DNA from: Escherichia phage VB_EcoS-Golestan
Sequence record: NC_042084.1
Strand: one strand, 5' to 3'
Length of the DNA: 44,829 nucleotides
This document shows, one piece after another, positions 4,760 to 37,939 of the stretch. The position numbers and the translations under genes are program-made. Position 1 is the stretch's first letter. Every line of letters begins with the position of its first letter. Under the pieces are notes generated by a model. That model worked only from the letters and a program-made list of their open reading frames with translations. It had not been told where the DNA came from and ran no database searches.

Positions 4760-4857
4760 AGTTCACCATTACCCGTGTCAATTTCACCAATACCACTACA
4801 AGCCCAAAGAAACATCACCGCATCAACTGCAATTACTACTGAAATAACGACTAACAT
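4756..4857 (-). CDS. Small hydrophobic peptide (33 aa) translationally coupled to the lipoprotein
   Basis: Hand-translated MLVVISVVIAVDAVMFLWACSGIGEIDTGNGEL; RBS GAGGAGG 6 nt upstream; stop overlaps lipoprotein ATG (ATGA). Confidence 0.3.
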   Translation of the reverse strand: MLVVISVVIAVDAVMFLWACSGIGEIDTGNGEL

Positions 4858-4884
4858 GACGGCCTCCTCGTTTCGATGTAATGA

Positions 4885-4913
4885 ATAGTACCCTATTATA
4901 TTGGTGTGTGCAA
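4885..4913 (-). promoter_or_regulatory. Family-1 promoter copy A (TTGCAC-N17-TACTAT) containing inverted repeat AATAG-N4-CTATT (4884-4897)
   Basis: About 35 bp near-identical to copies at 14121-14149, 37911-37939 and 39113-39141; lies just upstream of the lipoprotein cassette. Confidence 0.5.
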
Positions 4914-4979
4914 ACTATTTATTTACGTATTCCAGTTATTCCACTCAATTGTAAATGTTGGAATAAACTATTCGAATAG

Positions 4980-5008
4980 TTGACTTTTCACTAAAAATGT
5001 GCTAAGCT
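4980..5008 (+). promoter_or_regulatory. Sigma70-type promoter TTGACT-N17-TAAGCT with extended -10 TG; its -35 overlaps the perfect palindrome ACTATTCGAATAGT (4967-4980)
   Basis: Near-identical promoter at 37602-37630; both followed by the same transcribed leader. Confidence 0.6.
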
Positions 5009-5011
5009 CCA

Positions 5012-5063
5012 CCTGAGCTTGTGAAGTATGAACAAGCGACCGCGGCGCGGGCAGGTAACGGAG
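5012..5063 (+). other. Conserved promoter-proximal leader element, copy 1 (candidate cis-acting RNA, pause/antitermination site or 5' end of a small RNA)
   Basis: 38-nt block CCTGAGCTTGTGAAGTATGAACAAGCGACCGCGGCGCG identical to 37634-37671; contains hairpin GCTTGT-N9-ACAAGC. Confidence 0.5.
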
Positions 5064-5189
5064 CGGGACGTAAGGTCCTGAGTGTAGTTACGCTGACGCG
5101 TTCGGAAGGGCCATACTCTATTGCTTGTGTAAAAAGTAACGGGTTTACTGAGATTACGCCGTTTCTATGTTTAAATGATAAGGACTAGC

Positions 5190-5216
5190 GCCCCGCTTTA
5201 AGGCGGGGCTTTACTT
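5190..5216 (+). terminator. Terminator-like hairpin about 200 nt downstream of the 4980 promoter and upstream of the spanin genes
   Basis: GCCCCGC-TTTAAG-GCGGGGC followed by TTTACTTATC (imperfect U-tract). Confidence 0.4.
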
Positions 5217-5233
5217 ATCGAGAAAGGGGAAAC

Positions 5234-5620
5234 ATGAATCTTAAAGCAACTGTCGTAGCAGGAGCATGTTTCATCATCCTGGCTTACGCCCACGGCATTT
5301 ACCAGTATCGCAGCGGCTGGAGCGAAGGCCGGGCGAATCTCGTTTCGCAGCAACAGCAGAAAGCGCAGGCTGAGTTAGCGAAGAAAACACAACGGCAGCA
5401 GCAGGACGAATCAAAGGCCGCCGCCGCCGACAACGAAGGCAAGACGAAATCAGAGGTGATTACCCGTGAAGTCGTTAAATACATTAAAACGCCAGGTCGC
5501 AGCGTGTGCACTTTTGACCCTGAGCGCGTGCAGCTCAAGTCCCGCGCCGTCGCCAACGCCAATTCCATCCCCGGATACGACGATGATGCAGCCGCCGTGC
5601 AAACTGGCGCAGCCAAGTAG
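5234..5620 (+). CDS. i-spanin (Rz-like inner-membrane spanin)
   Basis: 128 aa; N-terminal TM helix, Gln/Ala-rich coiled-coil periplasmic region; o-spanin-like lipoprotein ORF overlaps in another frame. Confidence 0.55.
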   Translation: MNLKATVVAGACFIILAYAHGIYQYRSGWSEGRANLVSQQQQKAQAELAKKTQRQQQDESKAAAADNEGKTKSEVITREVVKYIKTPGRSVCTFDPERVQLKSRAVANANSIPGYDDDAAAVQTGAAK

Positions 5621-5729
5621 CGACGCTGATGAGGATTTGGCCGTCGACGTTCAGAATGCTGAATGCGTACGGCAACTGAGACTGAAAGTGTTCATGTTGC
5701 AGGATTACGTGAGGAATATTCTGGAATAG
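5466..5729 (+). CDS. o-spanin (Rz1-like outer-membrane lipoprotein), overlapping architecture, GTG start
   Basis: 87 aa; lipobox LSAC, proline-rich mature region (SPAPSPTPIPSP); begins inside and extends beyond the i-spanin ORF; RBS AGAGGTGA. Confidence 0.6.
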   Translation: MKSLNTLKRQVAACALLTLSACSSSPAPSPTPIPSPDTTMMQPPCKLAQPSSDADEDLAVDVQNAECVRQLRLKVFMLQDYVRNILE

Positions 5730-5811
5730 TTGCCTTGCATGTTGGAATAATTTATTCTTGACATGTAAATCCGGGTGGCCCGGATTCCAACGTCCAGGGG
5801 ACATACTGACT

Positions 5812-6513
5812 ATGAATCGTTTTTTACGTTATCCGTTCCAGGAAGAAGCTGGAGCAGAAGATAAAGCTGGTGGCGGTGACGCTCCTAAAATGTTCACCGC
5901 TGAAGAAGTTCAGGCGCTGATTGAGAAAGAAGTTGCCGGGCTTAAGGCCAATCAGGAAGCATTGCTGGCGGAGAAGAAAGAAGCCGCCCGTAAAGCAAAA
6001 GAGGCCGAAGAAGAACGGCAGCGTGCGCACCAGGAGGCGTTAAAGGCCGCCGGTAAGATGGACGAGTTTGAAAAGACGATTCGTAGCCAGTATGACCCGG
6101 TGTTAGCCGAGAAAGATGGCCGCATCTCCAAAATGGCAGAGCGCATCCTCGGCAGCGAACGTAAAGCGGTGCTAGGCTCTTTCGCGGGTGACTTTATTAC
6201 CCCGGAAGCAGTGGACATCCTTGCGCCGTTCGTTAAGACTGAGTTCGAAGGTGATGATGTGGTTACTAAGTTTGTCGGCGCAGACGGTAACGTAATCACG
6301 ACTGACCCGGAACAGTTCCGCAAATACCTGCGTGAACACAAAGCGTTTTCGCATTTGATTAAAGCAAATGCAGCTTCCGGCGGCGGGGCTTCCGGTGGCA
6401 AAGGCGGCGGGGCCGCACCAGCGTTTAAAGACATGAGTGAAGCAGAGCGTTTAGCCCTGTATAAATCGAACCCTGCCGAATTTGAACGGCAACTTAAAGC
6501 CCTGAGGAAATAA
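5812..6513 (+). CDS. Scaffolding protein (probable); start taken at ATG 5812 rather than ORF-track 5758
   Basis: Charged, alpha-helical, coiled-coil-like sequence with Gly-rich tail; directly upstream of the major capsid gene. Confidence 0.55.
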   Translation: MNRFLRYPFQEEAGAEDKAGGGDAPKMFTAEEVQALIEKEVAGLKANQEALLAEKKEAARKAKEAEEERQRAHQEALKAAGKMDEFEKTIRSQYDPVLAEKDGRISKMAERILGSERKAVLGSFAGDFITPEAVDILAPFVKTEFEGDDVVTKFVGADGNVITTDPEQFRKYLREHKAFSHLIKANAASGGGASGGKGGGAAPAFKDMSEAERLALYKSNPAEFERQLKALRK

Positions 6514-6515
6514 TA

Positions 6516-7565
6516 ATGGCAATTACCACTATCGGCGATATCGTAACTGGCAACATCCCGGTCCTGGCGTCTTATATGACCGAGGACCCGGTAGAAAAAA
6601 CCGCGTTCTTCCAGTCTGGTATTCTCACCCCGACCCCATACGCCGCCGAGATTGCCCGCGGCCCGTCCAACGTCGCTAATATTCCTTTCTGGAAAGCGAT
6701 TGATACCTCTATCGAGCCGAACTACTCGAACGACGTATACCAGGACATCGCCACCCCGCGTAACGTGCAGACCGGCGAGATGATGGCGCGCGTTGCGTAC
6801 CTGAACGAAGGTTTCGGTCAGGCGGATTTGACCGTTGAACTGACCAGCCAGAACCCGCTGCAATCCGTAGCGTCACGTCTGGATAACTTCTGGCAGCGTC
6901 AGGCACAACGCCGTCTGATTGCTACCGCGCTCGGGCTGTACAATGACAACGTAGCCGCTACCGACGCATACCACGAGCAGAAGGACATGGTAATCGACGT
7001 GTCTGCTACTCTGGGCTTCGATGCGGGCGCGTTCATCGACGCTACCCAGACTATGGGCGATGCTCTGATGGGCAACGGCGGTGAAGTGCTGGGGGCTATC
7101 GCGATGCATAGCTTCGTTTATGCGCAGGCACGTAAGCAGCAGCTTATCGACTTCATCCGTGACGCGGACAACAACACCATGTTCGCCACCTACCAGGGCT
7201 ACCGCGTGATTGTTGACGACAGCATGACCGTAGTCGGCACTGGCCCGACCCGTAAGTTCATCTCCATCATCTTCGGCAACGGCGCTATCGGTTACGGTGA
7301 AGGTTCTCCGTCCAACCCGCTGGAATACGAGCGCGAAGCGTCCCGCGGCAACGGCGGCGGCGTTGAAACCCTGTGGACCCGTAAGACCTGGTTGCTACAT
7401 CCGTTTGGTTACAGCTTCACCAGTGCAGTAATCACTGGCAACGGCACCGAGACTACCCCGCGCTCTGCTTCCTGGCAGGACCTGGCGAACGCCTCCAACT
7501 GGAACCGTGTGGTTGAGCGTAAGCATGTACCGATTGCCTTCCTGGTAACTGGTGTCGGTGCCTAA
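6516..7565 (+). CDS. Major capsid protein
   Basis: 349 aa; RBS AGGAAA; follows scaffold, followed by strong terminator; typical size and position. Confidence 0.75.
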   Translation: MAITTIGDIVTGNIPVLASYMTEDPVEKTAFFQSGILTPTPYAAEIARGPSNVANIPFWKAIDTSIEPNYSNDVYQDIATPRNVQTGEMMARVAYLNEGFGQADLTVELTSQNPLQSVASRLDNFWQRQAQRRLIATALGLYNDNVAATDAYHEQKDMVIDVSATLGFDAGAFIDATQTMGDALMGNGGEVLGAIAMHSFVYAQARKQQLIDFIRDADNNTMFATYQGYRVIVDDSMTVVGTGPTRKFISIIFGNGAIGYGEGSPSNPLEYEREASRGNGGGVETLWTRKTWLLHPFGYSFTSAVITGNGTETTPRSASWQDLANASNWNRVVERKHVPIAFLVTGVGA

Positions 7566-7582
7566 GGTTAAGCTATAATCGA

Positions 7583-7609
7583 GAGGGACTTCGGTCCCTC
7601 TTTTCATTT
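7583..7609 (+). terminator. Rho-independent terminator/attenuator after the major capsid gene
   Basis: GAGGGAC-TTCG-GTCCCTC hairpin followed by TTTTCATTT. Confidence 0.55.
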
Positions 7610-7626
7610 ACTAAGAGGATTCCTAA

Positions 7627-7968
7627 ATGGCAGACGTATTGAAGCGACGCATCACCGGCGTCTCCGCTGACGCCCCGGGGGCCAAGATTGACATGGAGAC
7701 TATTTCTCCTGCGTCTTTCTCTACGGCACTTAACGCTACTACTGCAGTAACCGCAGGTGAAACTATGACGCTGACAGTCGTAGTAGCTGGCGGTCTTGAG
7801 CCATATTCTTACCAGTGGTATAAGAATAACAACGCTATCGCCGGGGCAAACGCTGCTACCTACGCTAAAGCGTCAACCACTACCGCCGATTCCGGCACGT
7901 ATAAAGTGGTTGTTCACGATGTGTATGGTAATATTATCTCCAGCAGCACCGCAGCAACTGTGTCTTAA
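7627..7968 (+). CDS. Ig-like domain protein (capsid decoration candidate)
   Basis: 113 aa; motif YSYQWYKNNNAI...SGTYKVVVHDVYG typical of Ig-like/Big domains; RBS AAGAGGA; paralogous to 3858-4319. Confidence 0.55.
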   Translation: MADVLKRRITGVSADAPGAKIDMETISPASFSTALNATTAVTAGETMTLTVVVAGGLEPYSYQWYKNNNAIAGANAATYAKASTTTADSGTYKVVVHDVYGNIISSSTAATVS

Positions 7969-7972
7969 TACA

Positions 7973-7990
7973 ACGGCCCTTCGGGGCCGT
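7973..7990 (+). terminator. GC-rich stem-loop (ACGGCCC-TTCG-GGGCCGT) without clear U-tract; RNA-stabilising hairpin or weak terminator
   Basis: Read directly from sequence. Confidence 0.3.
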
Positions 7991-8004
7991 AATAAGGAAA
8001 GGTC

Positions 8005-8184
8005 ATGGCAGATAATTATGTAATCCGCGAAAAGTACACCCACGTTGATGTTGTTGACGGTCAGGTGATGCCTGTTCGCGGTGCGGTAGAAGCGGAAGAA
8101 CTGGTTGCAACACAACCGGACAACGAAGAAGCGCACAACAACGGTGGTGGTACTAAGCGACGTCGCCGTAAGTCAGAGGAATAA
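8005..8184 (+). CDS. Small hypothetical protein (59 aa) with basic C-terminus
   Basis: Hand-translated MADNYVIREKYTHVDVV...; RBS AAGGAAAGG; below the ORF-track length cutoff. Confidence 0.3.
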   Translation: MADNYVIREKYTHVDVVDGQVMPVRGAVEAEELVATQPDNEEAHNNGGGTKRRRRKSEE

Positions 8185-8187
8185 TTT

Positions 8188-8700
8188 ATGCCGCTAATCG
8201 TGGAAGATGGGTCGATAGTACCTAACGCTGACAGTTACGTTAGTCTGGCTGACGCCCGCGCGTTAGCGGCTAATTATGGCCTGGAGCTACCGGAAGACGA
8301 TACTGCCACCGAAGTAGCCTTGCGCAACGGCGCTACTTATGTCGGGCTTGCAGAACCGCAGATGTGCGGCCGCCGTGTGTCCGCCGAGCAGTCCCTGGCG
8401 TACCCACGTACGGGAACAACACTAAACGGCTTCACCGTAGCTGATAATGTTATCCCACCGCAGTTAATCCGGGCGCAGGTAATCGCCGCTGTTACGTATG
8501 GAGCGGGCACTGATGTTCGGGCTAACTCCGATGGACGTTCCGTGCAGACCGAGCGTGTAGAGGGTGCGGTAACAGTTACCTACTTCAACAACGGCAACAG
8601 CGGGGCCACAACCGCGATCACCGCCGCTGACGACGCCTTACGCCCGTTACTGTGTGGTGGTCTTAACAACGGCTTCTCATTTAATGTGTACCGGGGTTAA
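8188..8700 (+). CDS. Head-tail connector / head completion protein (position-based)
   Basis: 170 aa; tight gene packing within the capsid-to-tail connector block. Confidence 0.45.
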   Translation: MPLIVEDGSIVPNADSYVSLADARALAANYGLELPEDDTATEVALRNGATYVGLAEPQMCGRRVSAEQSLAYPRTGTTLNGFTVADNVIPPQLIRAQVIAAVTYGAGTDVRANSDGRSVQTERVEGAVTVTYFNNGNSGATTAITAADDALRPLLCGGLNNGFSFNVYRG

Positions 8701-8702
8701 AA

Positions 8703-9317
8703 ATGGCGAAGACTAAATCAGAGATGTTTACTCTTATCGGCGCAAACCTCCCCGATAACACTACCGGGCTTATTACCCCAGCAGCGTTGCGCGAGGTAAT
8801 GACACAGATGGCTGACTCACCTATTTACGCCACTCCAGGTGTTAAAGAGGTTGAAGTTCTCCGTGCCACGTCTACGGTAACCCAAGCGCCTACCGCGGTA
8901 GATACGGCATTGCAGTTAACTTTCGGTGCAGCTCAGGGTAGTGCATCCGACCCGGTAATGATTAATGCTGCGGGGCTGGTTACATTCAACACCGCCGGTA
9001 ACCACGCCGTTCGCATCAAGTTACAGGCAGGCCGCACAGGTGCCAGCGGAACGTCTATCCTGTTATCACGCATTCTTCTGAACGGTGCTCAGTACGGCTC
9101 ACCTGCCGCCACGAAACTGGTAAGCGCGGACACCACAATCCCGATTGAATCTCGCGTTGTTATTAACCCAACAGCAGGCCAGACGTTTGCCGTTCAGATT
9201 ATGCGGGATAGCGTCGGAACTAACTTCGGTGGTGTATACCCGCAAGCGGCTACCGTAACCGCATGGGGTACAGCCCCGTCCGCGTTGCTGGTTATTTCGA
9301 GACTGGAGGCCGCCTGA
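8703..9317 (+). CDS. Structural protein of the connector region (position-based)
   Basis: 204 aa; 2-nt spacing after upstream gene. Confidence 0.4.
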   Translation: MAKTKSEMFTLIGANLPDNTTGLITPAALREVMTQMADSPIYATPGVKEVEVLRATSTVTQAPTAVDTALQLTFGAAQGSASDPVMINAAGLVTFNTAGNHAVRIKLQAGRTGASGTSILLSRILLNGAQYGSPAATKLVSADTTIPIESRVVINPTAGQTFAVQIMRDSVGTNFGGVYPQAATVTAWGTAPSALLVISRLEAA

Positions 9318-9676
9318 TGAGCACCGCTTTCAGTAAACGTATGCAAGGCGTGGGTACACGCCTGCTAACCAAATTCGGCAGCACGGTATCTCTGGTTCGT
9401 GCTGGCTCGAAAGTGTGGGATGAAGTTCTCGGTGAGTACGTCTGGTCTGCGGATGAAGTGTTGCCGTTGAAAGCGGTTCCGGTTCCGGTTAATGCTGGAC
9501 TGGTAAACGGTTCGACGATTCAGGCGGCCGACATGATTGTTAAAGCCGATTACAGCGTCGTTCCGAAGATGGAAGACAAGGTTCAGTTTAGCGGCGCGCA
9601 ATGGTCTATCGTAGCTATCGAGACGAAGATGGTTAACGATGATGTCGTGGCATATTTTATTCAGGTGAGAAAATGA
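9317..9676 (+). CDS. Head-tail joining protein (position-based); start set at ATG 9317
   Basis: TGATGA stop-start overlap with upstream gene; RBS GGAGGC. Confidence 0.45.
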   Translation: MSTAFSKRMQGVGTRLLTKFGSTVSLVRAGSKVWDEVLGEYVWSADEVLPLKAVPVPVNAGLVNGSTIQAADMIVKADYSVVPKMEDKVQFSGAQWSIVAIETKMVNDDVVAYFIQVRK

Positions 9677-10068
9677 GTTTCGCGCTTGATGTCTCTAAGT
9701 TCGTGGAAAAGGCGAAGAAGAACCCTGAGAAGGTGATGCGTCAGGTGTCTATCAAGCTGTTTTCCGCTATTATAAAGGCGAGTCCGGTAGATACTGGTCG
9801 GTTTCGCATGAACTGGATGGCATCTGGCGGTACTCCTGCTTCCGGGATTACGGATGCTACGGATAAATCAGGAAACACAGCAACCGGAAACGCTACAAGT
9901 TTCGTGCTGAAAGCCACCGACTGGCATGAGTTCACGCTGACAAATAACCTGCCGTATGCACAACGGCTGGAGTATGGCTGGTCGCAACAGGCCCCGCAAG
10001 GATTCGTCAGGACTAACGTGTCCCGCTTCCAGCAACTCATTAACGAAGAAGCTAGCAAGGTGAGATGA
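9673..10068 (+). CDS. Tail completion / neck protein (position-based)
   Basis: 131 aa; ATGA overlap; within connector block. Confidence 0.45.
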   Translation: MSFALDVSKFVEKAKKNPEKVMRQVSIKLFSAIIKASPVDTGRFRMNWMASGGTPASGITDATDKSGNTATGNATSFVLKATDWHEFTLTNNLPYAQRLEYGWSQQAPQGFVRTNVSRFQQLINEEASKVR

Positions 10069-10481
10069 TGGGCTACTTTGAGGACTTAACAAAAGCGTTT
10101 GATGTGCCGCTGGTAGCCTTCGGAACCACCAACGGCATCAAGGTAGCGCTTGAAAACATCGACGCGCCGACGTCAACAGATACGCCGTATCTGGCAAGTT
10201 ACATGTTGCTGGCGGATACCGAGCAGGCTGACTTATTCTTCACGGAACAACGCGCCGGTGTCTATCAGATAGACATTAACTACACATCGGTGAAAGGTAG
10301 CGCGCCAATCAATAAAATGGCAGACTTACTTAACACGGCGTTTAAATCAGGTAAGTCATTTTCACGTAACGACATCTGCGCCGAGGTTCAATCGGTTAGC
10401 CTGGGGCCGCTGATTGTAGAAAACGGATGGGCCAAAAGACCATTGTCAATTAACTTTATTGCATTCACCAAGAGGCTGTGA
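10065..10481 (+). CDS. Tail terminator-like protein (position-based)
   Basis: 138 aa; immediately upstream of the major tail protein. Confidence 0.4.
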   Translation: MMGYFEDLTKAFDVPLVAFGTTNGIKVALENIDAPTSTDTPYLASYMLLADTEQADLFFTEQRAGVYQIDINYTSVKGSAPINKMADLLNTAFKSGKSFSRNDICAEVQSVSLGPLIVENGWAKRPLSINFIAFTKRL

Positions 10482-11650
10482 ATATGGCTACAACTCCTTT
10501 TAAGGGCGCGAATACCGCGCAATTCTATGTGGCGGAAACTACCCCGGGCGTAACACCGGCTAACCCGGTATGGTCGCCACTGCGTAACACAGGCGGCGTT
10601 CCTGCCATTACCCGTGACACGCTGACCTCCAACGAACTGGACGGCAGCCGCGAAACTACATCCATCCGCACCGGTAACAAGCAGGTTAGCGGTGAATATG
10701 CTATTGAGCTTAGCTCGAAAAGCCAGGATGACTGGCTAGCCGGGGCTTTAGGCTCTACGTGGCAGGCTGGCGTATCTCTGTCAGGGCTATCGATTACCGT
10801 CGCACCGGCTGGCAAGACGTTCACACGTGCCACCGGCAGCTTTATCACTGACAGAGTTGGGGTAGGCGACCTGATTGCGTTTACCGATTTAACTGGCGAT
10901 AATGCAAAACCATTTATTGTTACTGCAGTAACGGCTACGGTTGTTACTGGTGCAGGCATCCAACACACCCTGACCACCGAGACAAAAACTAGTAAGGCTA
11001 AAACTGGCGACACGCTGGAAACCGGTAATACGTGTAAGACGTTCTCTATCCTTACCTGGTACAAAGGCCAGTGCGGCGGTACTGACGCGTACACGTTAAC
11101 CAAAGGCGTGGAAGTTTCTGGTTTTACCATCGAACAGGCTGTTAACGCGATGGTAACTGGCAGCTTCCCATTCATCGGTCGCAGTCAGGAGATTCTCACC
11201 ACGCCGCCGACCGGTTCCAACTTCTCATCTGTTACTTTTGGTGATGAGCCGTTTTCTTCGGTTGACGTTTCCGTGTTCGATGGTTCTACGCCGTTGCGAT
11301 GCGACAGTCTGACTATCACCAACGATAACAGCGCGTCCGCGCAGTTCGAACTTGGTAACACTAACGTAGCGTTTGTTGAGCGTAGCCGCGCGGCTAACAC
11401 TTTCTCCATCTCCGGCAAGCTGTACGACATGGCGATGATTCAGAAGTTTATCAACGAACAGCAGGTAGAGATTAACTCTATTCTGGCGGGGGTAAACGGG
11501 GCTATGTCTTTCAGTTTGAAACGCGCAGAGCTTACAGCAGTAACACCAGAGATTGGCGGACCCGAGTCAATCACTCAGTCCATTGAGGGGCAGGCCACCG
11601 GCAACCAGTACCAGTCGTCTATCGTAATTCAACGTATCACCTACGCATAA
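10478..11650 (+). CDS. Major tail protein
   Basis: 390 aa; Thr/Gly/Ser-rich beta-type composition; RBS AAGAGG; followed by terminator and later by tail chaperone/tape measure. Confidence 0.6.
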   Translation: MNMATTPFKGANTAQFYVAETTPGVTPANPVWSPLRNTGGVPAITRDTLTSNELDGSRETTSIRTGNKQVSGEYAIELSSKSQDDWLAGALGSTWQAGVSLSGLSITVAPAGKTFTRATGSFITDRVGVGDLIAFTDLTGDNAKPFIVTAVTATVVTGAGIQHTLTTETKTSKAKTGDTLETGNTCKTFSILTWYKGQCGGTDAYTLTKGVEVSGFTIEQAVNAMVTGSFPFIGRSQEILTTPPTGSNFSSVTFGDEPFSSVDVSVFDGSTPLRCDSLTITNDNSASAQFELGNTNVAFVERSRAANTFSISGKLYDMAMIQKFINEQQVEINSILAGVNGAMSFSLKRAELTAVTPEIGGPESITQSIEGQATGNQYQSSIVIQRITYA

Positions 11651-11682
11651 AACTAAGGCCCCTTTCGGGGCCTTTTTCTTAC
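11651..11682. terminator. Bidirectional rho-independent terminator
   Basis: AAGGCCCC-TTTC-GGGGCCTT flanked by an A-run and a T-run; separates convergent major tail gene and kinase gene. Confidence 0.6.
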
Positions 11683-12233
11683 AAACCTAATTTTAAAGCA
11701 ATGTCTATAACGTTCGATTTAACGTCACCCGGTATGATGTAGGTGTCGTAATCTTTTACACCACTAACATCATACAGATAGCCACGGCTATCGCCGATGA
11801 ACGTATAGCCGTCACGATGGAGGCGAACGATTTGCACGTCATGCCCTGCGGCGACGATAGGGGTAACTTCGCTGGCGAACCCACCATCGGACACCACAAA
11901 AACTTCGCCGCCGTCGGGCAAGTTCCCGGAAAGATACTTACCGAAATAATCATCGCCGAATACCGGTTTAACGAATTGCTCAGAAATGGCAATCATGAAC
12001 TGGCGACGAGATAACCCATTAAGGAAATCTTCTGGCTTTTCTTTCCGCGCCCGGTCGTCGTAGCCGTCGAGAAAGTCGTGGTAAGCATCCTGGCCTAACG
12101 CTGCCAAAGCAATATTGAACATCGGATTCTTGAAACGGGTAGTTCCTTTCGCAAAGCCCATCTCTACCAGCGCCCTAGCAAGTGTGTCTTTCCCACAACC
12201 AGCAGGGCCATTAAGAATAATTACCTTAGCCAT
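11679..12233 (-). CDS. P-loop NTPase / nucleotide or polynucleotide kinase-like protein
   Basis: 184 aa; Walker A GPAGCGKDT near N-terminus; coupled (ATGA overlap) to the upstream HAD phosphatase. Confidence 0.6.
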   Translation of the reverse strand: MAKVIILNGPAGCGKDTLARALVEMGFAKGTTRFKNPMFNIALAALGQDAYHDFLDGYDDRARKEKPEDFLNGLSRRQFMIAISEQFVKPVFGDDYFGKYLSGNLPDGGEVFVVSDGGFASEVTPIVAAGHDVQIVRLHRDGYTFIGDSRGYLYDVSGVKDYDTYIIPGDVKSNVIDIALKLGL

Positions 12234-12721
12234 TACTTATCACTCCCGTGTGATTTTAAGTGTGTAGAGTCCCCGTTACAGTCGTACTCAGTGACCGCGT
12301 GTGTCGTGATTCCTAAGCCACGGAAATGCTTAATCACCGCGGGAGAGTCGTCGAATGCGCACAAGATTCTTTCCAGTCCGAAAGCACGCAACACCTCTTC
12401 TTTAATTACGATGTCTTTTCTGTTGTCGTGTTTGCTGCGCATGATTAGCGTGTCAAACCTAACGTTATTCTCTCGTAACCATTCGCGAGTCTCCTCCTCA
12501 GCGTCATCACTTCGCCCGGTAAGGATAATTATAGTAAGTCCGGAATGCCACAGTACGCTACACAAATGGATATTGTCGTATATCGGAGCGTCATCTTTGC
12601 AGGCCATGTTAAATGGCTTCCACGCCCACGTTTCTCCGTAGTTATCTTTTGGTAACAGGTGTAAGCGATGGGTACCGTCGGCCAATGTCCCGTCTAAATC
12701 GAAAATTACAATATCTTTCAT
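12233..12721 (-). CDS. HAD-superfamily phosphatase (polynucleotide 3'-phosphatase / nucleotidase-like)
   Basis: 162 aa; HAD motifs FDLDGT (DxDGT), ILTGR, and DD (CAFDDS). Confidence 0.7.
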   Translation of the reverse strand: MKDIVIFDLDGTLADGTHRLHLLPKDNYGETWAWKPFNMACKDDAPIYDNIHLCSVLWHSGLTIIILTGRSDDAEEETREWLRENNVRFDTLIMRSKHDNRKDIVIKEEVLRAFGLERILCAFDDSPAVIKHFRGLGITTHAVTEYDCNGDSTHLKSHGSDK

Positions 12722-13848
12722 CCCAGCATCTCCGGTGAAATAGTTAAACGTGCGACCTCGCCATATTCGGCGCTATAAGTAATTACATTTGCACTGCGGC
12801 CCGACATCCATCCGCCGCGAGAGGCGTAGGCGTCTTTAGCCGCTAAGGTGCGGTGTTGCTCAACAATCATGTTACGGCTTTCTACAATCTTCTGGTGGTG
12901 CAGATGGCCTACGTGGGCGTAGCTGTAAACACTCTCGCCGAACGCTTTACGGAACTTGGCAATCATAACCGGTTCGATAGCGTCGAATCGTGCTTTATGC
13001 CCGTGATGGAAGAACAGCGTCGTTTTGCCGTGTTGCACCATCTTATAAACATCCGGCGACGTATCGACGAATACACGAGGCTCGTTGTCGTACAGTGTGC
13101 TGAACATCTCCGCCAGCCAAATCATCCCGGATTCGTCGTGGTTCCCCTGAACTATAAGCAAGCGAACAGTTTTATGCTTAACCAGAGCCATATCAACAAC
13201 ACGGCGGACCATGCGAATCATGTAGCGGACAAGTTTCTGGTAACGCGTGTCGGCGTCAAGGACATGACCACTCGCCGGTGTAACGGCGTCAAGACTATCG
13301 AAGTGAGCTAAGTCGCCAAGAAGATTAATAACCCCCGTACCTGCATCCGGTGCTTTCTGAAACGCAGCATCAAACCAACGAGAGAATAAGTCCTCCGCGA
13401 TTTTCATATCCCAGTCGTCGCCGCTCTCGTCAGCCCAGGCTAACATACCGAGATGGAAATCAGACACGGTGTACAGGTTAAGCAGCTTGTCGTCACGTTT
13501 AGCCCGGGCGGCCTTAACTGGCGGAACGGGAGTAATCTCCGACTTCATGCCTTCGACTACGGCTTTCATCAACTCAACCTGACGTTCGGCATCGGTGTCT
13601 GTCTTAACCCACTGCAACTTAGTGTTACCGAACTCGTCCACCAGAGACGACGTGCCTTTAATCTTGTAGCCGTCTGGTACAAGGTGGCTTACGTCCCGCC
13701 CGTGGCCTACGCCTTTCTTAGCCAGCTTCGCTTTACGGATTCGGATAACGCGGTCTGAGATTCCGTATTTACGGGCGATATCGATATTCTTCATCCCGGC
13801 GTTCAATTCTTCCTGTAATTGCTCGTCGGTTATTTTCTTCTGGGCCAT
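12718..13848 (-). CDS. HTH-containing calcineurin-like metallophosphoesterase (Mre11/SbcD-fold nuclease or phosphodiesterase candidate); start set at ATG 13848
   Basis: Metallophosphoesterase motifs DFH, GDLAHFD, GNHDE, HHGH, GHLHH; N-terminal HTH-like segment; RBS GAGGAAG before ATG 13848 (ORF-track start 13953 would overlap the next gene). Confidence 0.75.
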   Translation of the reverse strand: MAQKKITDEQLQEELNAGMKNIDIARKYGISDRVIRIRKAKLAKKGVGHGRDVSHLVPDGYKIKGTSSLVDEFGNTKLQWVKTDTDAERQVELMKAVVEGMKSEITPVPPVKAARAKRDDKLLNLYTVSDFHLGMLAWADESGDDWDMKIAEDLFSRWFDAAFQKAPDAGTGVINLLGDLAHFDSLDAVTPASGHVLDADTRYQKLVRYMIRMVRRVVDMALVKHKTVRLLIVQGNHDESGMIWLAEMFSTLYDNEPRVFVDTSPDVYKMVQHGKTTLFFHHGHKARFDAIEPVMIAKFRKAFGESVYSYAHVGHLHHQKIVESRNMIVEQHRTLAAKDAYASRGGWMSGRSANVITYSAEYGEVARLTISPEMLG

Positions 13849-13886
13849 GCTTACTTCCTCGTGTTTAGGATTTGTCTTATAGTAGC

Positions 13887-14078
13887 CTACTTCTCTTTCA
13901 CGTTCGAGTTGCAAGCCCAGATTAAAATGAATACCCACGGCAACAGAATCCACCCGAGAAATAAGTTAGCCATGAATATCGCCAGCTTTGCTTTATGGTT
14001 ACGCATATGGGCCACCAAAAACGGGATAAAATAAACGGCTACAAAAATAATTAAGAAGAACATAGTGATACCGGTCAT
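13887..14078 (-). CDS. Small two-TM membrane protein, superinfection-immunity (Imm)-like; start set at ATG 14078
   Basis: 63 aa; RBS AGGAG; motif NLFLGWILLPWVFILIWA recalled as characteristic of the Imm family. Confidence 0.5.
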   Translation of the reverse strand: MTGITMFFLIIFVAVYFIPFLVAHMRNHKAKLAIFMANLFLGWILLPWVFILIWACNSNVKEK

Positions 14079-14149: not shown

Positions 14150-14256
14150 GTAGTGTGCTAGAATAATTTTGCGCCTAGTGTCGCACACGAAAAGCGGGTG
14201 GTTCCCGTCTGGCGCATTTCCTTTAACCAGTAACCTCTTAACCAAAGGATTAAAGA

Positions 14257-14673
14257 ATGAAACTTTCTGATTTTTATTACGAAGCGGAAGCCGAAAAGGG
14301 CGCACGTATGCCGATACCGCTAAAAGACGGTACTGATTCCGGGGAATGGCTTAATGTTGTTTCTCCTGAGGCGGACGTTGCCGTTAAGGCTATGCGCGCG
14401 TTCACCCTTGCATACCGGGCAGTATTAGGGAAATTAAAACCGCTTCGTGATAAGTGCGAAGAGATGAAAGATTTCTCTGAATACAACCTGAAGATGGAAG
14501 ACGCGGCGACGGACCTTAACCGTCAGTTAGCGATTGAATTGGTTAACGGGTGGAGCCTTGACGACGAATTCAATAAAGAGAATCTGAACACACTCCTGAC
14601 GCAATATAAACGACTCGCGGAACTTGTTGTTGTGTTTCATAACGAACAACTGCACCAGCTACAGGAAAAGTAG
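14257..14673 (+). CDS. Tail assembly chaperone (gpG-like)
   Basis: 138 aa acidic protein immediately upstream of tape measure; downstream ORF in -1 frame. Confidence 0.5.
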   Translation: MKLSDFYYEAEAEKGARMPIPLKDGTDSGEWLNVVSPEADVAVKAMRAFTLAYRAVLGKLKPLRDKCEEMKDFSEYNLKMEDAATDLNRQLAIELVNGWSLDDEFNKENLNTLLTQYKRLAELVVVFHNEQLHQLQEK

Positions 14674-14678
14674 ACGCG

Positions 14679-15038
14679 TTGCTCCAGTTCGCCCGTTGGA
14701 ACTTCATAACCCGCCACAAACGGCGGGAATTTGACAGTATCGCCGATGGGCATAAAGCCGCGCTAATTGCTATGGGGGTTATGCAAGACGCGCCGGATGC
14801 AACGCAGGCCGCTGGGCCGGAATGCCCCCCTGAGCTACTAACCACATTTGAGAAGTACAGGGAAATTAAATTCACCCGCCGAGTGGACGACGACGGCATC
14901 AAGATGTACCCGCGCGAGCAATTACGATGGTCAGATTTAGTGGCGTACAGCACCGTTTCAGGCCAGAATATAGGGATGTTCGAATCCGACATCATCATGA
15001 GCTTAGACGCTATTTTCGAGGGTAGAAACGATGGCTGA
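14679..15038 (+). CDS. Tail assembly chaperone frameshift extension (gpT-like), likely expressed as a G-T fusion by -1 frameshift
   Basis: ORF is in the -1 frame relative to 14257-14673 and stays open across the upstream stop; A-rich tract GGAAAAG at 14664-14670 before the stop. Confidence 0.45.
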   Translation: MLQFARWNFITRHKRREFDSIADGHKAALIAMGVMQDAPDATQAAGPECPPELLTTFEKYREIKFTRRVDDDGIKMYPREQLRWSDLVAYSTVSGQNIGMFESDIIMSLDAIFEGRNDG

Positions 15039-17370
15039 TGTAGCTAGTTTAGTAGTAAAAGTAACAGAGCAAGGCGCGAAAGCCACATCAGACCGTCTTG
15101 ACAACCTTTCAAAGTCCGCAAAAGTAGCGGGGGCCGCCGTAGCAGGCCTTGCTTCTATCGTAGCGGCTACCGCGTATAAAGCTGCCCAAGAACTGGTTGA
15201 CTCACAGCGGCAACTGGACAAGATGTCCGCCAGTTTGAAGACCTTAACAGGAAGTACCCAAGGTGCTAAACAGGCGCTAAGTATCCTGCAAGATTTTGCC
15301 CGCGATACCCCATACGGACTGGAGCAGGCGGTGGAAGGCTTCCGTAAGCTGGTGGCCCTTGGCCTTACCCCATCCGAGGAGGCGTTGCGGTCCTACGGCA
15401 ATACCGCATCGGCTATGGGCAAGGACCTTAATCAGATGATTGAGGCGGTAGCCGACGCCAGTACGTTTGAGTTCGAACGCCTAAAAGAATTCGGCATCAA
15501 AGCCAAGCAGAACAAAAACGACGTAGAGTTTACATTCCGGGGGACAACAACCGTAGTTAAGAAAAGCGCTGCCGATATTGAGCAGTATTTACTTAATATT
15601 GGTAACGTAAATTTTGCCGGTGCCATGGCGGACCAGGCCAACACCCTTAATGGCGCTATCGCGAGCGCCAGTGACTCATGGTCGCAGCTAAAAATGACGC
15701 TTGCCACCAGTCTTGATGTTGGCGCACTTGCGGAACCTATCAGGTATATCGATGACTTGATCCAGGAATTAAACGCGTCTGTTGCTTCCGGTGAATTAGC
15801 CGCTGAAATGCAGATGTGGGGCGACATAGCGTCGGAAGTAGGAAGCGCTATCGAGATGTCATTCGACGCTGCGTTTGGCTTTGTTGGTGATGCCATCAAC
15901 GGGCTTAATGAACTGTGGGATTTCAGCAGCAAGAGTATTACCGATAGCGGAGAACAAACGGCCACCACCATCGCTGAATCCGCCGCCGATGCTCTTGACT
16001 TCATCGCGGAAGAGTTCACCGCGATGGAGAGATTCTTTGAAGATATGGTTAAAGGTGCTCAGGACGCTGGCCGTCTTGTACGCGCCGCTTTTACCCCCGG
16101 GGAATCAGTAGACGTAGCTAAAAATATCAACTTCCAGCTTGGCATGGCTTTGGATACCCAGCGCGATGTCGCCGACGTTACGCGTAAAAGTTTCCGCGAA
16201 CAGGTAGAAGCTCAACAGGATATTGTAGCGTTAAAACGCGCGGCGTATGACATCGATAAGGAGTCCGCAAAAGCTGAGGGGTTAAACAAATTTAAGGTAA
16301 CCGGAACCGGCGGCGGTTCTGACGATGACGGGTCAGCCGCAAAAGCCGCTAAGAAAGCAGCGGACGCGTTCGAGCGCCAGAAAAAGGCGGCGGAAGACTT
16401 CTACTATCAGTCAATCCATCTTAATGATGACGTATTTCAGAAAATAGAAGCTAACCAGGAAGAGCAACTGTCTAAGTTGCAGGATTTTTATAGCAATAAG
16501 CTTCTTAGCGACCAACAGTACGAAAACGCCAAGACGCAGATTATGCTCTCTGCCGAACAGGCCCGCCAGGAAGAACTGGACAAGAAAAGGAAAGAAGCCC
16601 AGGAGAAGCAGCAGAAAGGTGATGATTTCATGGCTCAGATTATGGGCCAGAACGCCACCGAGCTTGAGCTTCTGGATATTCAGGAACAGCAGAAACTGGC
16701 GGTAGCCGATAAGTACCGGGAACAAGGTCTGATTAGCGAGAAGCAGTATCAGGCTGCGCTTAACGCCATCAACGAGCAGTACGCAACCAAGCGTGCCGAC
16801 GCAACGGCAACAGCTTTCGGTAACATGGCCTCAAACATCGGGTCTGCGTTGGGCGAGGCTTCTGGCGCGTATAAGGCATTCGCTATCGTACAGGCTACTA
16901 TAGCCACGTACACCGCAGCTATTGAGGCATACAAGTCAACGGCTGCTATCCCTGTTGTTGGCCCGTTCCTGGCCCCTGTAGCCGCTGCCGCTGCCGTCGG
17001 GGCAGGTATGGCGCAGATTTCCGCTATCAGGTCAGCACGTGAACAGGGTGGACAGTTATCCGCCGGGCAGGCTTCCACCATCGCTGAACGCGGTAAACCC
17101 GAAGTTATCATGCCCGCTGGCGCATCGCGTGTGCGCACCGCGCAGCAGATGAAAGAAATTATGGGGCAAAACGGGTCTTCTTCCGGCCCATCTAATGTTA
17201 CCATTGTAAATAATACATCGAGTCAGATTGGCAACGTATCCACCGAGCAGGATGATGAAGGCCGTCTGCGTATCATCATAGAAGAGCAAGTTGCTGCATC
17301 TTTGCAGAACAGCAACAGTAAGATTAGCAAGGCCCGCAAGGCCACAAGAAACGCGCCGGGGTTTAAATAA
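15031..17370 (+). CDS. Tape measure protein
   Basis: 779 aa; Ala/Gln-rich coiled-coil composition; located after the chaperone pair and before tail tip genes. Confidence 0.8.
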   Translation: MADVASLVVKVTEQGAKATSDRLDNLSKSAKVAGAAVAGLASIVAATAYKAAQELVDSQRQLDKMSASLKTLTGSTQGAKQALSILQDFARDTPYGLEQAVEGFRKLVALGLTPSEEALRSYGNTASAMGKDLNQMIEAVADASTFEFERLKEFGIKAKQNKNDVEFTFRGTTTVVKKSAADIEQYLLNIGNVNFAGAMADQANTLNGAIASASDSWSQLKMTLATSLDVGALAEPIRYIDDLIQELNASVASGELAAEMQMWGDIASEVGSAIEMSFDAAFGFVGDAINGLNELWDFSSKSITDSGEQTATTIAESAADALDFIAEEFTAMERFFEDMVKGAQDAGRLVRAAFTPGESVDVAKNINFQLGMALDTQRDVADVTRKSFREQVEAQQDIVALKRAAYDIDKESAKAEGLNKFKVTGTGGGSDDDGSAAKAAKKAADAFERQKKAAEDFYYQSIHLNDDVFQKIEANQEEQLSKLQDFYSNKLLSDQQYENAKTQIMLSAEQARQEELDKKRKEAQEKQQKGDDFMAQIMGQNATELELLDIQEQQKLAVADKYREQGLISEKQYQAALNAINEQYATKRADATATAFGNMASNIGSALGEASGAYKAFAIVQATIATYTAAIEAYKSTAAIPVVGPFLAPVAAAAAVGAGMAQISAIRSAREQGGQLSAGQASTIAERGKPEVIMPAGASRVRTAQQMKEIMGQNGSSSGPSNVTIVNNTSSQIGNVSTEQDDEGRLRIIIEEQVAASLQNSNSKISKARKATRNAPGFK

Positions 17371-18788
17371 TGAGCGACTTATACTTTCCACGTAGCCTTA
17401 AGCCGGTGGTATCAAAAGGCTACTCAATGACCAGACGTAACAACGTCTGGAGTGTAGATTTAGCCGGTGGCGGGGTGCGTCAGGGCCGTGACACGTATTA
17501 CGACGTGTTCCCTGTTAGCGTAACCCTGATTACATCCGCAATGGGGCGACAGGCGTTTCTGTCGTTCCTCGAGAAAGTCGATGGTGGCGCGTCAAGTTTC
17601 TGGATGGCGCACGACTTCGGCATGGGTATTGAGGATTATCAGGTAACCATCACGTCCACTATAGCGGAGTCCACCGAAGACGGGATTAACTGGACAATTA
17701 CCTTCACGGCAACCGCCGAGAAATCGCCGTTCCAGGACCTTGAGAACCAATGCCTGATTAACAATCTTCCGGATTTGTATGGCTGTTATGGTGATTGCCT
17801 GGGCAGTTTCCTGAAAATATATGCGAACTACGAGACTACGTTCCCACGCATCTGGAGTAATGAAGGGCCTGCGGGATACCCGCCAATTAACCTTCTGGCG
17901 TCCGCGCTGGATAGCCGCATTGTTTATGAGGGGCCACAGGTATACCACATCAACCGAAACGGCAATCTTGTGCCATCAGCCGCAAATGAATGGCCCCTTA
18001 CGTTTATTGACGGGGTTGCTGTTGGGCGTGTGCCACCAGAAGGCGGTTCTATTAACTACCAGATAGGCGGGTTAGGTATTGGGTGGGTACATACTTTCAA
18101 CCGTATACCACTAACATCAACAGAGGACAGTGTATATCAAGGCAACCTGGCGGGCACAGTCACCCCAACAGCAGAAAATAACAGCCATTTCTTGTATGCC
18201 GAATCGCTGGGGGATTCAGTAATAGATGTTGGGGAAACATATACTGCTACGGTAATTCTTAAGGCGAATGGTGTCCAGTTTATTCAGGTTTATTGGAACG
18301 CAGGTAGCACAGGGATTTCACCGCACTACTCTAACTTCGACCTTATTAATAAAGCTGTATCAGGCACGGCGACATCGGCTTTCGTAACTGAAATATCTGA
18401 TGGGTGGGTTCTATGCTCAACTACCACAACCGCGACAGGAGACGGTTCTGCACTATCCTCCATCGCGGTGGCAAGCGTACCGTCTATGACGTCTACCAGA
18501 CTCCCGTCTTACGCATCGGATGGAGCATCTTCTTTTTCAGTTGCGTCCGCTCAGGTTGAAAAAAAACCATTTGCCACGTCGCCGATAGTAACTGACGCAT
18601 CACCATCCGCCCGCCCGGCGGCATCGGCAAAAGTAGCAATGAACGGCGCAACAAGCATCGACATTACCTATTCTGACGGCACTGTGGTAAACATTCCAGC
18701 GATTGGAGATTACGCCGCCATCCCACAGGCTGATTCTGCGTGGGGCAGTAAATACATCACTCGTATTGATTTTAATGTGGGCGGTTAA
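17370..18788 (+). CDS. Minor tail protein (distal tail / tail tip component)
   Basis: 472 aa; ATGA overlap with tape measure stop. Confidence 0.5.
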   Translation: MSDLYFPRSLKPVVSKGYSMTRRNNVWSVDLAGGGVRQGRDTYYDVFPVSVTLITSAMGRQAFLSFLEKVDGGASSFWMAHDFGMGIEDYQVTITSTIAESTEDGINWTITFTATAEKSPFQDLENQCLINNLPDLYGCYGDCLGSFLKIYANYETTFPRIWSNEGPAGYPPINLLASALDSRIVYEGPQVYHINRNGNLVPSAANEWPLTFIDGVAVGRVPPEGGSINYQIGGLGIGWVHTFNRIPLTSTEDSVYQGNLAGTVTPTAENNSHFLYAESLGDSVIDVGETYTATVILKANGVQFIQVYWNAGSTGISPHYSNFDLINKAVSGTATSAFVTEISDGWVLCSTTTTATGDGSALSSIAVASVPSMTSTRLPSYASDGASSFSVASAQVEKKPFATSPIVTDASPSARPAASAKVAMNGATSIDITYSDGTVVNIPAIGDYAAIPQADSAWGSKYITRIDFNVGG

Positions 18789-18791
18789 CTT

Positions 18792-19307
18792 ATGAGTCAG
18801 GAATCAGTAGAAGCAGCCTACCGCCGTAAGCTGGCCTCAAACCCCGACGGCGAGATTGACTACACGACGCTGGAGATAGTGCATCCGCTTCTTTCGAAGC
18901 GGTATTTACTTGTGCGCGGGCTACAGGAACTTACGGCAACACTGGAGACAGGCGAAACTATCACATTCGAACCTACCCCGATGGAGGCGTCGGGGGCGGC
19001 TAACAACAGTGATATGGACCAGACGACAACATTCACTCTGCCGGATATTCTCAATCAACTGGATGATGAGATGGATAAAATCCCGATGAGTAATACCGAG
19101 TTACCGAAGTTCATATTCCGCCGTTACGTCAGCACTGACCTGTCTTACCCGGCTGACGGCCCTGTCGTGTACGAGTTACAGGCCATTAATCAGGAGAAGG
19201 GCGAGTTCTCCGCAGATGTCGGTACACCTATGCTGAACCAACGAAGCACTGGTATACTGATGACACCTAAAGAGATACCGTTATTACGCGGCCTGTTGAC
19301 CACATGA
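18792..19307 (+). CDS. Minor tail protein
   Basis: 171 aa; position within tail tip block. Confidence 0.45.
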   Translation: MSQESVEAAYRRKLASNPDGEIDYTTLEIVHPLLSKRYLLVRGLQELTATLETGETITFEPTPMEASGAANNSDMDQTTTFTLPDILNQLDDEMDKIPMSNTELPKFIFRRYVSTDLSYPADGPVVYELQAINQEKGEFSADVGTPMLNQRSTGILMTPKEIPLLRGLLTT

Positions 19308-22227: not shown

Positions 22228-22239
22228 AGAGGACTCTAT

Positions 22240-27246: not shown

Positions 27247-27434
27247 TTTGCCACCAGAACTAACTCTTTACGCCCGAACGCCGTAACGTTACCGGTTACA
27301 TCTTCGATAACCAGTTTACCGTTCGACTCGACGTACACCGTATCAACGGCAACAGGCCGACGGGTCTTAACGTTGAAAATCATGTCGCCAGGTACGATGT
27401 CACGTGCTGGTTTGCGGTCATATTCGTGTTTCAT
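27243..27434 (-). CDS. Hypothetical protein (63 aa)
   Basis: First ORF downstream of family-2 promoter C; ATGA overlap with the methyltransferase gene. Confidence 0.4.
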   Translation of the reverse strand: MKHEYDRKPARDIVPGDMIFNVKTRRPVAVDTVYVESNGKLVIEDVTGNVTAFGRKELVLVAK

Positions 27435-27464
27435 TTCTCAATTCCTTATATTGTTGGTGTAGGA

Positions 27465-27752: not shown

Positions 27753-27831
27753 CCACACACCCCTCACGTTTCGTATGCGCAATACCACAGCGCGGACAGA
27801 TCCGGCGGTCTTCTTCGTAGAACCAGTAAAT

Positions 27832-37601: not shown

Positions 37602-37630
37602 TTGACTTTTACTAAAAAATATGGTAAGCT
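37602..37630 (+). promoter_or_regulatory. Sigma70-type promoter TTGACT-N17-TAAGCT with extended -10 TG (paralog of 4980-5008)
   Basis: Near-identical to the 4980 promoter; followed by the same leader. Confidence 0.6.
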
Positions 37631-37633: not shown

Positions 37634-37690
37634 CCTGAGCTTGTGAAGTATGAACAAGCGACCGCGGCGCGCGGCAGGCGAAACGAGCAC
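37634..37690 (+). other. Conserved promoter-proximal leader element, copy 2
   Basis: 38 nt identical to 5012-5049, then similar but diverged sequence. Confidence 0.5.
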
Positions 37691-37799
37691 GTGTAGCGTG
37701 TGGAGTGAGGCTCGCTAGCGCGTTTGGGAGGCCCAAAGTCTATTGTAAATCCCACCTAAATATCTAAGTTACTGATTTGCCGTAGGTCAGAACCGCAAG

Positions 37800-37826
37800 C
37801 TCACTCACTCACTCACTCACTCACTC
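37800..37826. repeat. Tetranucleotide microsatellite (CTCA)6 followed by hairpin GGTGCC-TTCG-GCACC (37831-37846)
   Basis: Direct read: CTCACTCACTCACTCACTCACTCACTC. Confidence 0.9.
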
Positions 37827-37910: not shown

Positions 37911-37939
37911 TTGCACACCCCAACATAATAGGATACTAT
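37911..37939 (+). promoter_or_regulatory. Family-1 promoter copy F (TTGCAC-N17-TACTAT) with inverted repeat AATAG-N4-CTATT (37927-37940)
   Basis: Near-identical to copies A, B and H; upstream of the small-gene block starting at 37975. Confidence 0.5.

Follow-up and report, generated by a model that had tools for sequence, protein, structure and literature searches.

The stretch of DNA analysed here (the window) is the complete 44,829-bp genome of a Kagunavirus, a member of the Guernseyvirinae. Its genes, taken from the annotation ON001686.1, fall into three rightward blocks, a leftward replication block and a leftward insert (Table 1). The original prediction held that a duplicated promoter, followed by a conserved leader, heads the two long rightward operons. 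The duplicated promoter-plus-leader module is real, and copy 1 precedes the spanin, scaffold and capsid genes as claimed. The tail genes from 14257 on, assigned to the same operon, have a promoter-like site and a different leader of their own. The genes listed behind copy 2 are also as described, but a second promoter-like site precedes them. Terminator-like sites lie on the + strand inside the rightward operons at 2756, 4323, 7581 and 11655.

The leader of the tail genes matches the int-alpA RNA motif (RF02996) at 14168–14232 on the + strand, with 36.6 bits against a gathering score of 35.8. A TTGGGG-N16-TGcTAGAAT promoter-like site immediately precedes this element, the tail-chaperone ATG at 14257 follows 25 nt after it, and the element is kept in phages K1G, Jersey and SETP13 with compensatory changes from GUG/CAC to CGG/CCG. 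Since it heads the third rightward operon, all three rightward operons start with a structured leader. The int-alpA RNA resembles copy 1 and copy 2 in being a structured leader right after a promoter-like site of the same phage, and it is a described family. Its fold and sequence, however, are unrelated to the core of either copy.

Table 1. Coordinates of the two leader copies, their parts and the surrounding gene blocks
Feature	Position	Strand	Details and evidence
Small genes, lysis, terminase, portal	37974, across the end of the window, to 4319	rightward	annotation
Copy-1 promoter	4980..5008	+	−35 TTGACT 4980–4985, 17-nt spacer, TG 5000–5001, −10 TAAGCT 5003–5008
Structured RNA core, copy 1 (type A)	5015..5123	+	R1 130 bits, E=6e-30
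P1 hairpin	5017..5037	+	GCUUGU-GAAGUAUGA-ACAAGC, 2 nt from predicted 5' end
Long arm	5040..5105	+	about 66 nt; independent folds of every type give the same architecture
P2a	5040–5042/5103–5105	+	CCG/CGG
P2	5044–5049/5097–5102	+	GGCGCG/CGCGUU, two conserved G.U pairs
P2b	in arm, between P2 and P3	+	CAG/CUG
P3	5055–5059/5087–5091	+	GUAAC/GUUAC
Internal loop of arm		+	GGAGC / GAGUGUA
P4	5065–5079	+	GGGAC-GUAAG-GUCCU
Unpaired tract, sequence-conserved	5106..5123	+	AAGGGCCAUACUCUAUUG; alignments across types
Tiered hairpin upstream of spanin start	5161..5233	+	terminator scan; fold
i-Spanin, first gene of copy-1 operon	5234..5620	+	annotation
Spanin, scaffold, capsid, neck/tail genes	5234–11650	rightward	annotation
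Leftward insert	11679–14078	leftward	annotation
Tail genes	14257–24225	rightward	annotation
Replication genes	37500–24254	leftward	annotation
Copy-2 promoter	37602..37630	+	−35 TTGACT 37602–37607, TG 37622–37623, −10 TAAGCT 37625–37630
Structured RNA core, copy 2 (type B)	37637..37745	+	R1 81.8 bits, E=5e-18; fold
3' tail	37746..37799	+	motif AAGUUACUGAUUUGCCGUAG at 37766–37785
(CUCA)n repeat, C-rich, G-poor	37800..37826	+	6.75 units; 3.75 in type B/B' relatives L008, L010, L020
UUCG-capped hairpin	about 37828–37844	+	GGUGCC-UUCG-GGCACC, then ACGUUCGUUUCG, poor U tract
Second promoter-like site	37911..37939	+	TTGCAC-N17-TACTAT; AATAG-N4-CTATT in spacer; repeat families D1/D4

The near-identical promoter pair, given originally as TTGACT-N17-TGnTAAGCT, is present at both loci, and these are the only perfect matches to TTGACT-N14-TGnTAAGCT. 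The copy-1 promoter is kept in relatives. A simple sigma-70 scan missed both sites because the −10 element TAAGCT is weak, agreeing with TATAAT at three of six positions; it retains T-12, A-11 and T-7, and the TG of an extended −10 is present. From the promoter geometry, transcription is predicted to start at about G5015/A5016 for copy 1 and about G37637 for copy 2. The two promoters open a direct repeat (4980–5049 and 37602–37671) with 89% identity over 70 nt. The identical 38-nt block reported within it was recovered: the 38-mer CCTGAGCTTGTGAAGTATGAACAAGCGACCGCGGCGCG occurs exactly twice, at 5012–5049 and 37634–37671, and no such repeat appeared in 100 shuffles, even with 3 mismatches allowed. 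It contains the predicted hairpin GCTTGT-N9-ACAAGC, at 5017–5037 and 37639–37659. Beyond the 38-mer the copies remain similar (72% mean column identity with indels) and can be aligned over about 170 nt. A leftward promoter-like site, TTGCTT-N17-TATACT at 37538–37566 (− strand), precedes the HTH gene at 37500–37312; some 40 nt separate it from the copy-2 promoter, which points the other way, so that the pair makes up a divergent control region.

The 38-nt block forms the 5' end of a structured domain in the RNA, about 108 nt long, which begins about 7 nt past the −10 at both promoters. The domain consists of the hairpin P1, a 2-nt linker, an irregular arm (P2–P4) of about 22 bp with internal loops, and a conserved 3' tract, UUCGGAAGGGCC..CUAUUG. 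For the copy-1 core, the minimum free energy (MFE) structure equals the centroid, with z=−3.0 and none of 200 shuffles as good. In copy 2, P1 and the base of P2 are the same, and P3 and P4 are rebuilt with other sequences; P4 differs compensatorily, GGAC-GUAAG-GUCC in copy 1 versus CACG-UGUAG-CGUG in copy 2. Folding each of types A–E and J (see below) alone by MFE gave the same layout, that is, P1, a linker of 1–2 nt and a long arm in the order P2a (CCG/CGG), P2 (GGYGCG/CGCRUU), P2b, P3, internal loop and P4 hairpin.

Relatives were gathered with three independent patterns against IMG/VR, one metagenome scan and GenBank phage records. The first test specified the structure by hand on a MAFFT alignment. 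There, 94.3% of the cells pair, and covariation is 0.160 compared with 0.067 in shuffles. A covariance model, R1, was built from this alignment and used to guide another, of 35 distinct sequences and 930 cells. In the R1-guided alignment, which is fitted to the model and composed of related sequences, 96.0% of the cells are paired, 15 of 28 pairs have double-sided changes, and covariation is 0.273 versus 0.094 in shuffles (0 of 500) and no more than 0.063 when partners are slid. One P2 pair occurs as C-G, U-A and A-U, and one P3 pair as U-A, A-U and G-C. Two P2 pairs are conserved as G.U, indicating that the structure belongs to the + strand transcript. RNAalifold on a sequence-only MAFFT alignment across all types recovered P2 alone, because the arms are too divergent to align. 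The element is thus present and constrained in related genomes, as anticipated, and on this comparative evidence the leader is a functional structured RNA, conserved with extensive compensatory changes. Two additional pairings were considered and dropped. A closing helix P0 (CCU/AGG), proposed by RNAalifold, would lie upstream of the predicted start, and a pseudoknot of GAGUGU with AUACUC has a partner position that varies freely (C/G/A/U) opposite an invariant G.

The fold is kept through compensatory changes in at least nine sequence types. Types A and A' occupy the copy-1 site in Kagunavirus and some Salmonella phages, type J occupies the copy-1 site in Jerseyviruses, and types B, B', C, C', D and E are found at the copy-2 site. 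Across K and J types, the most conserved parts are the base of the arm and its 3' flank, not the loops (ACCGCGGYGCG ... CGCRUUCGGAAGGGCC ... CUAU(A)UUG). In the upper arm the structure is preserved and the sequence is free to vary. A conserved helix base and flank beneath a variable upper arm point to specific recognition. P1 is fixed in position and replaced in sequence: type E has GCUUGUGA-GAUA-UCGCAAGC and type J has ACGCU-UUC-AGCGU where most types have GCUUGU/ACAAGC, and U.G variants occur in two relatives (L052 and L053).

The K-type copy-1 leader is found in 181 GenBank phage records at 92–99.5% identity and the J-type leader in 268 records. These numbers match the 447 records that have the adjacent HTH gene in common, so the leader is essentially universal in Kagunavirus and Jerseyvirus; copy 1 or its Jersey-type equivalent is present in essentially all of about 450 sequenced members. 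The second core copy is optional, with about 41 extra places among the 181 K-type records and type E alone in about 20 records. K1G, SETP13 and Jersey have one core only, or none, and lack the second copy; no match to the core was found at their copy-2 locus even with filters off. An unrelated 5' domain stands there behind a TTGACA-type promoter, and a 3' tail of the related kind is still present, as are a terminator-like hairpin and, further downstream, the second promoter. The picture of two long operons that both depend on the module therefore does not hold: copy 2 can be missing, its type varies, and an independent promoter follows it.

No copies were found outside the Guernseyvirinae in searches of IMG/VR, metagenome, GenBank phage and E. 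coli sequences. All metagenome hits that score with R1 are relatives of about 44 kb from this subfamily, with the same types, and the remaining hits failed the model. We rejected host origin or mimicry, as blastn against 5,426 E. coli genomes gave no match and the sole plasmid hit is probably a phage genome. This entry (PLSDB CP088689.1, 44,086 bp) is classed as a non-mobilizable plasmid, its host being an E. coli isolate from blood, and has the leader twice at 98% identity. Its size fits a Kagunavirus genome, and it is probably a phage assembled with its host.

The arm is missing in only 2 of the 268 J-type records, Jersey UPWr_S1 and SLMP1. In UPWr_S1 the deleted sequence lies between ACCGCG repeats; in SLMP1, where the deletion arose independently, P2 remains as a short capped hairpin. 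Because both are natural isolates, the arm is not essential for plaque formation. SETP13 (L071) has a Kagunavirus-like tract, at 4845–6250, in a Jerseyvirus backbone. The last head/neck gene of this tract has 93% identity to K types versus 70% to Jersey and is accompanied by the K-type leader, and the spanin just downstream of the leader is Jersey-like. The mosaic tract indicates that the leader moves by recombination; only the adjacent gene was co-transferred with it.

The hairpin predicted downstream of copy 1 is real. It occupies 5190–5209, has 8 bp of which 7 are G-C (inner stem GCCCCGC/GCGGGGC), and is followed by TTTACTT, UUUACUU in the RNA, which gives it a terminator-like look. An A/U-rich linker joins the copy-1 core to the tiered hairpin, in which the 5190–5209 stem is the innermost part. 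The middle tier, GAUAAG/CUUAUC, pairs 5177–5182 with 5214–5219, and the outermost helix, GUUUCU/GGAAAC, covers the spacer between the spanin Shine-Dalgarno (SD) sequence and the AUG. The fold has z=−4.4 (0 of 200 shuffles), and the same tiers are found in 22 K-type variants. Type J keeps the tiers with a different sequence and no U run (UUAGCGUAUAAAG) in 268 Jersey-type genomes. Without a U run in J types, the property conserved across the family is a hairpin before the spanin ribosome-binding site, not termination. The original view of this hairpin as a termination point thus probably does not extend to the Jersey types, and the flanks form additional conserved helices. Judged by its sequence, the pre-spanin hairpin of J types is probably not a terminator, and only the K-type hairpin also looks like a moderately efficient one. 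The scan found no promoter-like site between the 5190–5209 hairpin and the spanin ATG.

Downstream of copy 2, the predicted hairpin is likewise present, GGTGCC-TTCG-GGCACC followed by ACGTTCGTTTC. Tails related to the copy-2 tail are found at the same locus in phages without the core. The (CUCA)n repeat could, from its composition, be a Rho loading site. After the hairpin comes the second promoter-like site, 35 nt before the ATG (37974) of the first gene; it is conserved at all copy-2 loci. Elsewhere, promoter-like sites of the same class are predicted to drive two leftward inserts.

Searches of both copies and relatives against Rfam 15 gave no family overlapping either copy at gathering level, and at E≤10 only chance-level hits. 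Our literature search found no published account of the leader element. One genome paper lists predicted promoters and terminators near the leader and nothing more, and the sole related transcriptome paper treats annotated genes only; no experiment on the leader, mapped transcript or UTR data were found. As an RNA family the leader has not been described before, but its general kind is known, a promoter-proximal structured phage leader or small RNA. The Arg-rich leader peptide suggested for the shared block is not maintained. Its reading frame varies among 9, 17, 19, 22, 34, 36, 40 and 41 aa, 1-nt indels distinguish the types, and the ATG is absent in one relative (L055), in type E and in all J types. 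As neither frame nor start is conserved, the hypothetical protein of 36–38 aa annotated there in several records is spurious.

Among 30 small proteins compared with PHROGs and Pfam, there is no Q, N or other antiterminator family, in agreement with the earlier statement that no Q homologue is recognisable. PDB sequence searches of 4 proteins without family assignment were empty. Membership in the lambda N/nut group was rejected, since there is no boxA, the P1 loops are 9, 4–8 or 3 nt long, and the Arg-rich reading frame is not conserved; a boxA resemblance of CUCUAUUG is abolished by the variants AGUC, AAUC and GGCU. A riboswitch or switchable attenuator was also rejected. Manual checking found no conserved pairing of core or flank with either arm of the hairpin in K or J types, and the arm can be deleted.

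The leader at 5015–5233 is the only visible promoter route into the spanin, scaffold and capsid genes, and we therefore propose that it is a cis-acting regulatory leader of this operon, working by attenuation or antitermination. We give this reading a probability of roughly 40%. We infer a start at the predicted site, action in cis and an effect on termination, as follows. Host sigma-70 RNA polymerase would initiate at the extended −10 promoter, and the first ~108 nt of the transcript would fold into the 5'-terminal P1 and the ~66-nt arm with its conserved flank. The tiered hairpin would then act as a leaky intrinsic terminator, to go by its look, and mask the spanin ribosome-binding region. 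The folded 5' domain may be recognised, via the conserved helix base and flank, by RNA polymerase or by a phage or host factor. Such recognition would set transcription and translation past the promoter-proximal hairpin and the terminators at 7581 and 11655, and the terminal hairpin P1 might also protect the transcript. Consistent with this proposal, the leader is universal at a fixed position, with the arm lost in only the two J-type records; no promoter-like site intervenes before the spanin ATG; terminator-like sites lie on the + strand inside the rightward operons; the conserved helix base and flank point to specific recognition; and the third rightward operon is likewise headed by a structured leader, the int-alpA-like one. 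The layout, with a paired element right after two promoters, is that of putL and putR in phage HK022 (PMC9378689). Against the proposal stand the lack of a U run in the J-type hairpin, the armless isolates UPWr_S1 and SLMP1, and copy 2, which ends before another promoter and looks more like a separate small RNA gene. Nor did the manual check find an alternative pairing between core and hairpin, or the protein searches a candidate factor.

The position of copy 2 raises the question whether the leaders are instead stand-alone small RNAs of about 200 nt that act in trans on a host or phage protein or mRNA, read-through from copy 1 into the spanin being incidental. We consider this possible, though not probable. 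Each copy has its own promoter and 3' hairpin, and copy 2 is laid out as promoter, core, tail and hairpin, followed by a separate gene promoter. Some untranslated RNA is encoded at the copy-2 locus in every case, and its 5' domains are interchangeable (types B–E, or the unrelated domain of K1G, SETP13 and Jersey). The diversity of types among near-identical phages, together with the arm loss in two isolates, fits an accessory or arms-race role, and CUAUUG and UUACUGAUUUGCCG, both conserved and unpaired, could be seeds. Copy 1, however, is fused to its operon with no promoter after it, and the U tract of the copy-2 hairpin is poor. The phage genome contains no site complementary to the tail motifs with up to 3 mismatches, and the leader has no similarity to E. 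coli genomes. Action in trans would make the leader a new small RNA of phages, one whose types are diversifying.

A role that leaves RNA polymerase unaffected is somewhat unlikely. Here the leader would be a passive 5' UTR element, either a stabiliser of the late mRNA as in the ompA 5' UTR or an RNase III processing signal as in the early and late mRNAs of T7. It shares with these a hairpin predicted to lie at the extreme 5' end (putative start ~5015) and a long irregular helix with internal loops, in which the upper-arm structure is conserved more than the sequence. All types, irrespective of the P1 sequence, place this hairpin about 2 nt or less from the predicted 5' end; the ~22-bp arm is deletable; and the tiered hairpin ahead of the SD masks the SD spacer. 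Unlike the ompA and T7 hairpins, the present element has a helix base and flank that are strongly conserved in sequence, and it is apparently a separate unit at the second locus. Passive function leaves unexplained both this strict conservation across K and J types and the retention of a copy before a terminator and a second promoter.

Within the cis-acting reading, a more specific mechanism is suggested by the comparison with HK022. The put RNAs suppress terminators without a dedicated factor, through the zinc-binding domain of the β' subunit. Beyond the paired placement of related cis elements just after two promoters, the likeness extends to two stem-loops from the transcript start, copies that differ by compensatory changes, and operons with terminators and no dedicated protein evident (PMC9378689). 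In contrast to the put element of about 70 nt, the present core is about 108 nt long with a 66-nt arm, and the loops differ. Its host phage is virulent and not lambdoid, its arm can be deleted, and its activity on polymerase is a predicted one. R1 has no match in the HK022 genome at E≤10, so the suggested parallel does not extend to sequence or structure similarity by this model. We regard it as unlikely, though worth stating, that virulent siphophages possess, in this core, a new class of antiterminator that works as nascent RNA and has no sequence relationship to put. E. coli or Salmonella RNA polymerase, or a new small phage factor, would be bound via the P2 base and the GGAAGGGCC flank, making the late operons terminator-resistant, and the variable copy 2 would extend the effect to another operon. 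Should polymerase be its target, only one other kind of factor-independent antiterminator RNA would be known in phages.

The original prediction also drew a parallel with lambda PR'-6S RNA-tR'. In a system of this type (PR'-qut-6S RNA-tR' in lambda), a DNA-bound factor, Q, would load on polymerase paused at a −10-like element and read through a terminator about 200 nt away. The present locus resembles it in a promoter that looks constitutive, some 200 nt of leader, a hairpin resembling a terminator, and lysis and structural genes downstream. K types have a strong promoter with the hairpin ~195 nt downstream, there are −10 near-repeats around +1 (TAAGCT..TGAGCT in K, TACGCT..TACGCT in J), and AAGTAT at +10 fits NANNAT. 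Lambda late control, however, relies on DNA and a pause signal and needs no RNA structure, and here RNA structure is the conserved feature. The proposed pause element TATGAA falls within the loop of P1, and that loop is a different one in type E (GAGAUAUC) and in type J (UUC). The key A at position 2 is missing from TGAGCT, and the candidate pause elements AAGTAT, TGAGCT and TACGCT are not common to K, E and J types. As the terminator feature lacks a U tract in Jersey-type relatives and no Q family protein is found among the 30 small proteins, we consider this mechanism very doubtful. Most improbable of all is a role of the P1 dyad (21 bp, ~+3 to +23) in the DNA, as the operator of a dimeric phage repressor. 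Such an operator would account for the identity of the block at both promoters, the perfect 6-bp dyad has operator-like size and position, and the phage encodes two HTH proteins and has another dyad, AATAG-N4-CTATT, at 8 promoters, but the variants keep RNA pairing and not DNA symmetry (in L052, L053 and type E an A-to-G change produces U.G), arm spacing shifts by 1 nt in type E, and P2–P4 are not addressed, an RNA role being compatible in any case.

Few phages are isolated, or used against E. coli and Salmonella, as often as the Guernseyvirinae Kagunavirus and Jerseyvirus, and the leader bears on the question of how late genes are timed in phages without their own polymerase. It defines a well-supported, previously unannotated RNA family at the head of the capsid operon, where it is often mis-annotated as a short hypothetical protein. 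The fold, covariance model, natural deletion variants and type variants make its function directly testable.

The AATAG-N4-CTATT dyad occurs 8 times in the window against 0.02 expected, at 4884, 14120, 27473, 31241, 34134, 37927, 38971 and 39129. It sits in the spacers of two promoter-like classes, TTGACA-N17-TATAGT (leftward) and TTGCAC-N17-TACTAT, and is probably the operator of a phage HTH regulator. In fBC-Eco01 the motif was called a 'phage RNA polymerase promoter' (PMC9825357); the annotation of the present genome lists no RNA polymerase gene. In UPWr_S1 (L045), 968 nt without an annotated gene (27254–28222) lie between the leftward HTH gene and the first rightward gene. This stretch has no Rfam match; it contains a TTGACA-N17-TAAGTT promoter-like site, a terminator-like hairpin near 27600 and G+C-rich repeats at 27860–27990. 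Finally, the 12-mer ATGTTGGAATAA occurs exactly twice in the window, at 4955–4966 upstream of the leader promoter and at 5739–5750 upstream of the scaffold gene, where it is followed by TTGACA and a hairpin, AATCCGGG-TGG-CCCGGATT. The pair may be a shared regulator site or mark a second entry point to the capsid genes.
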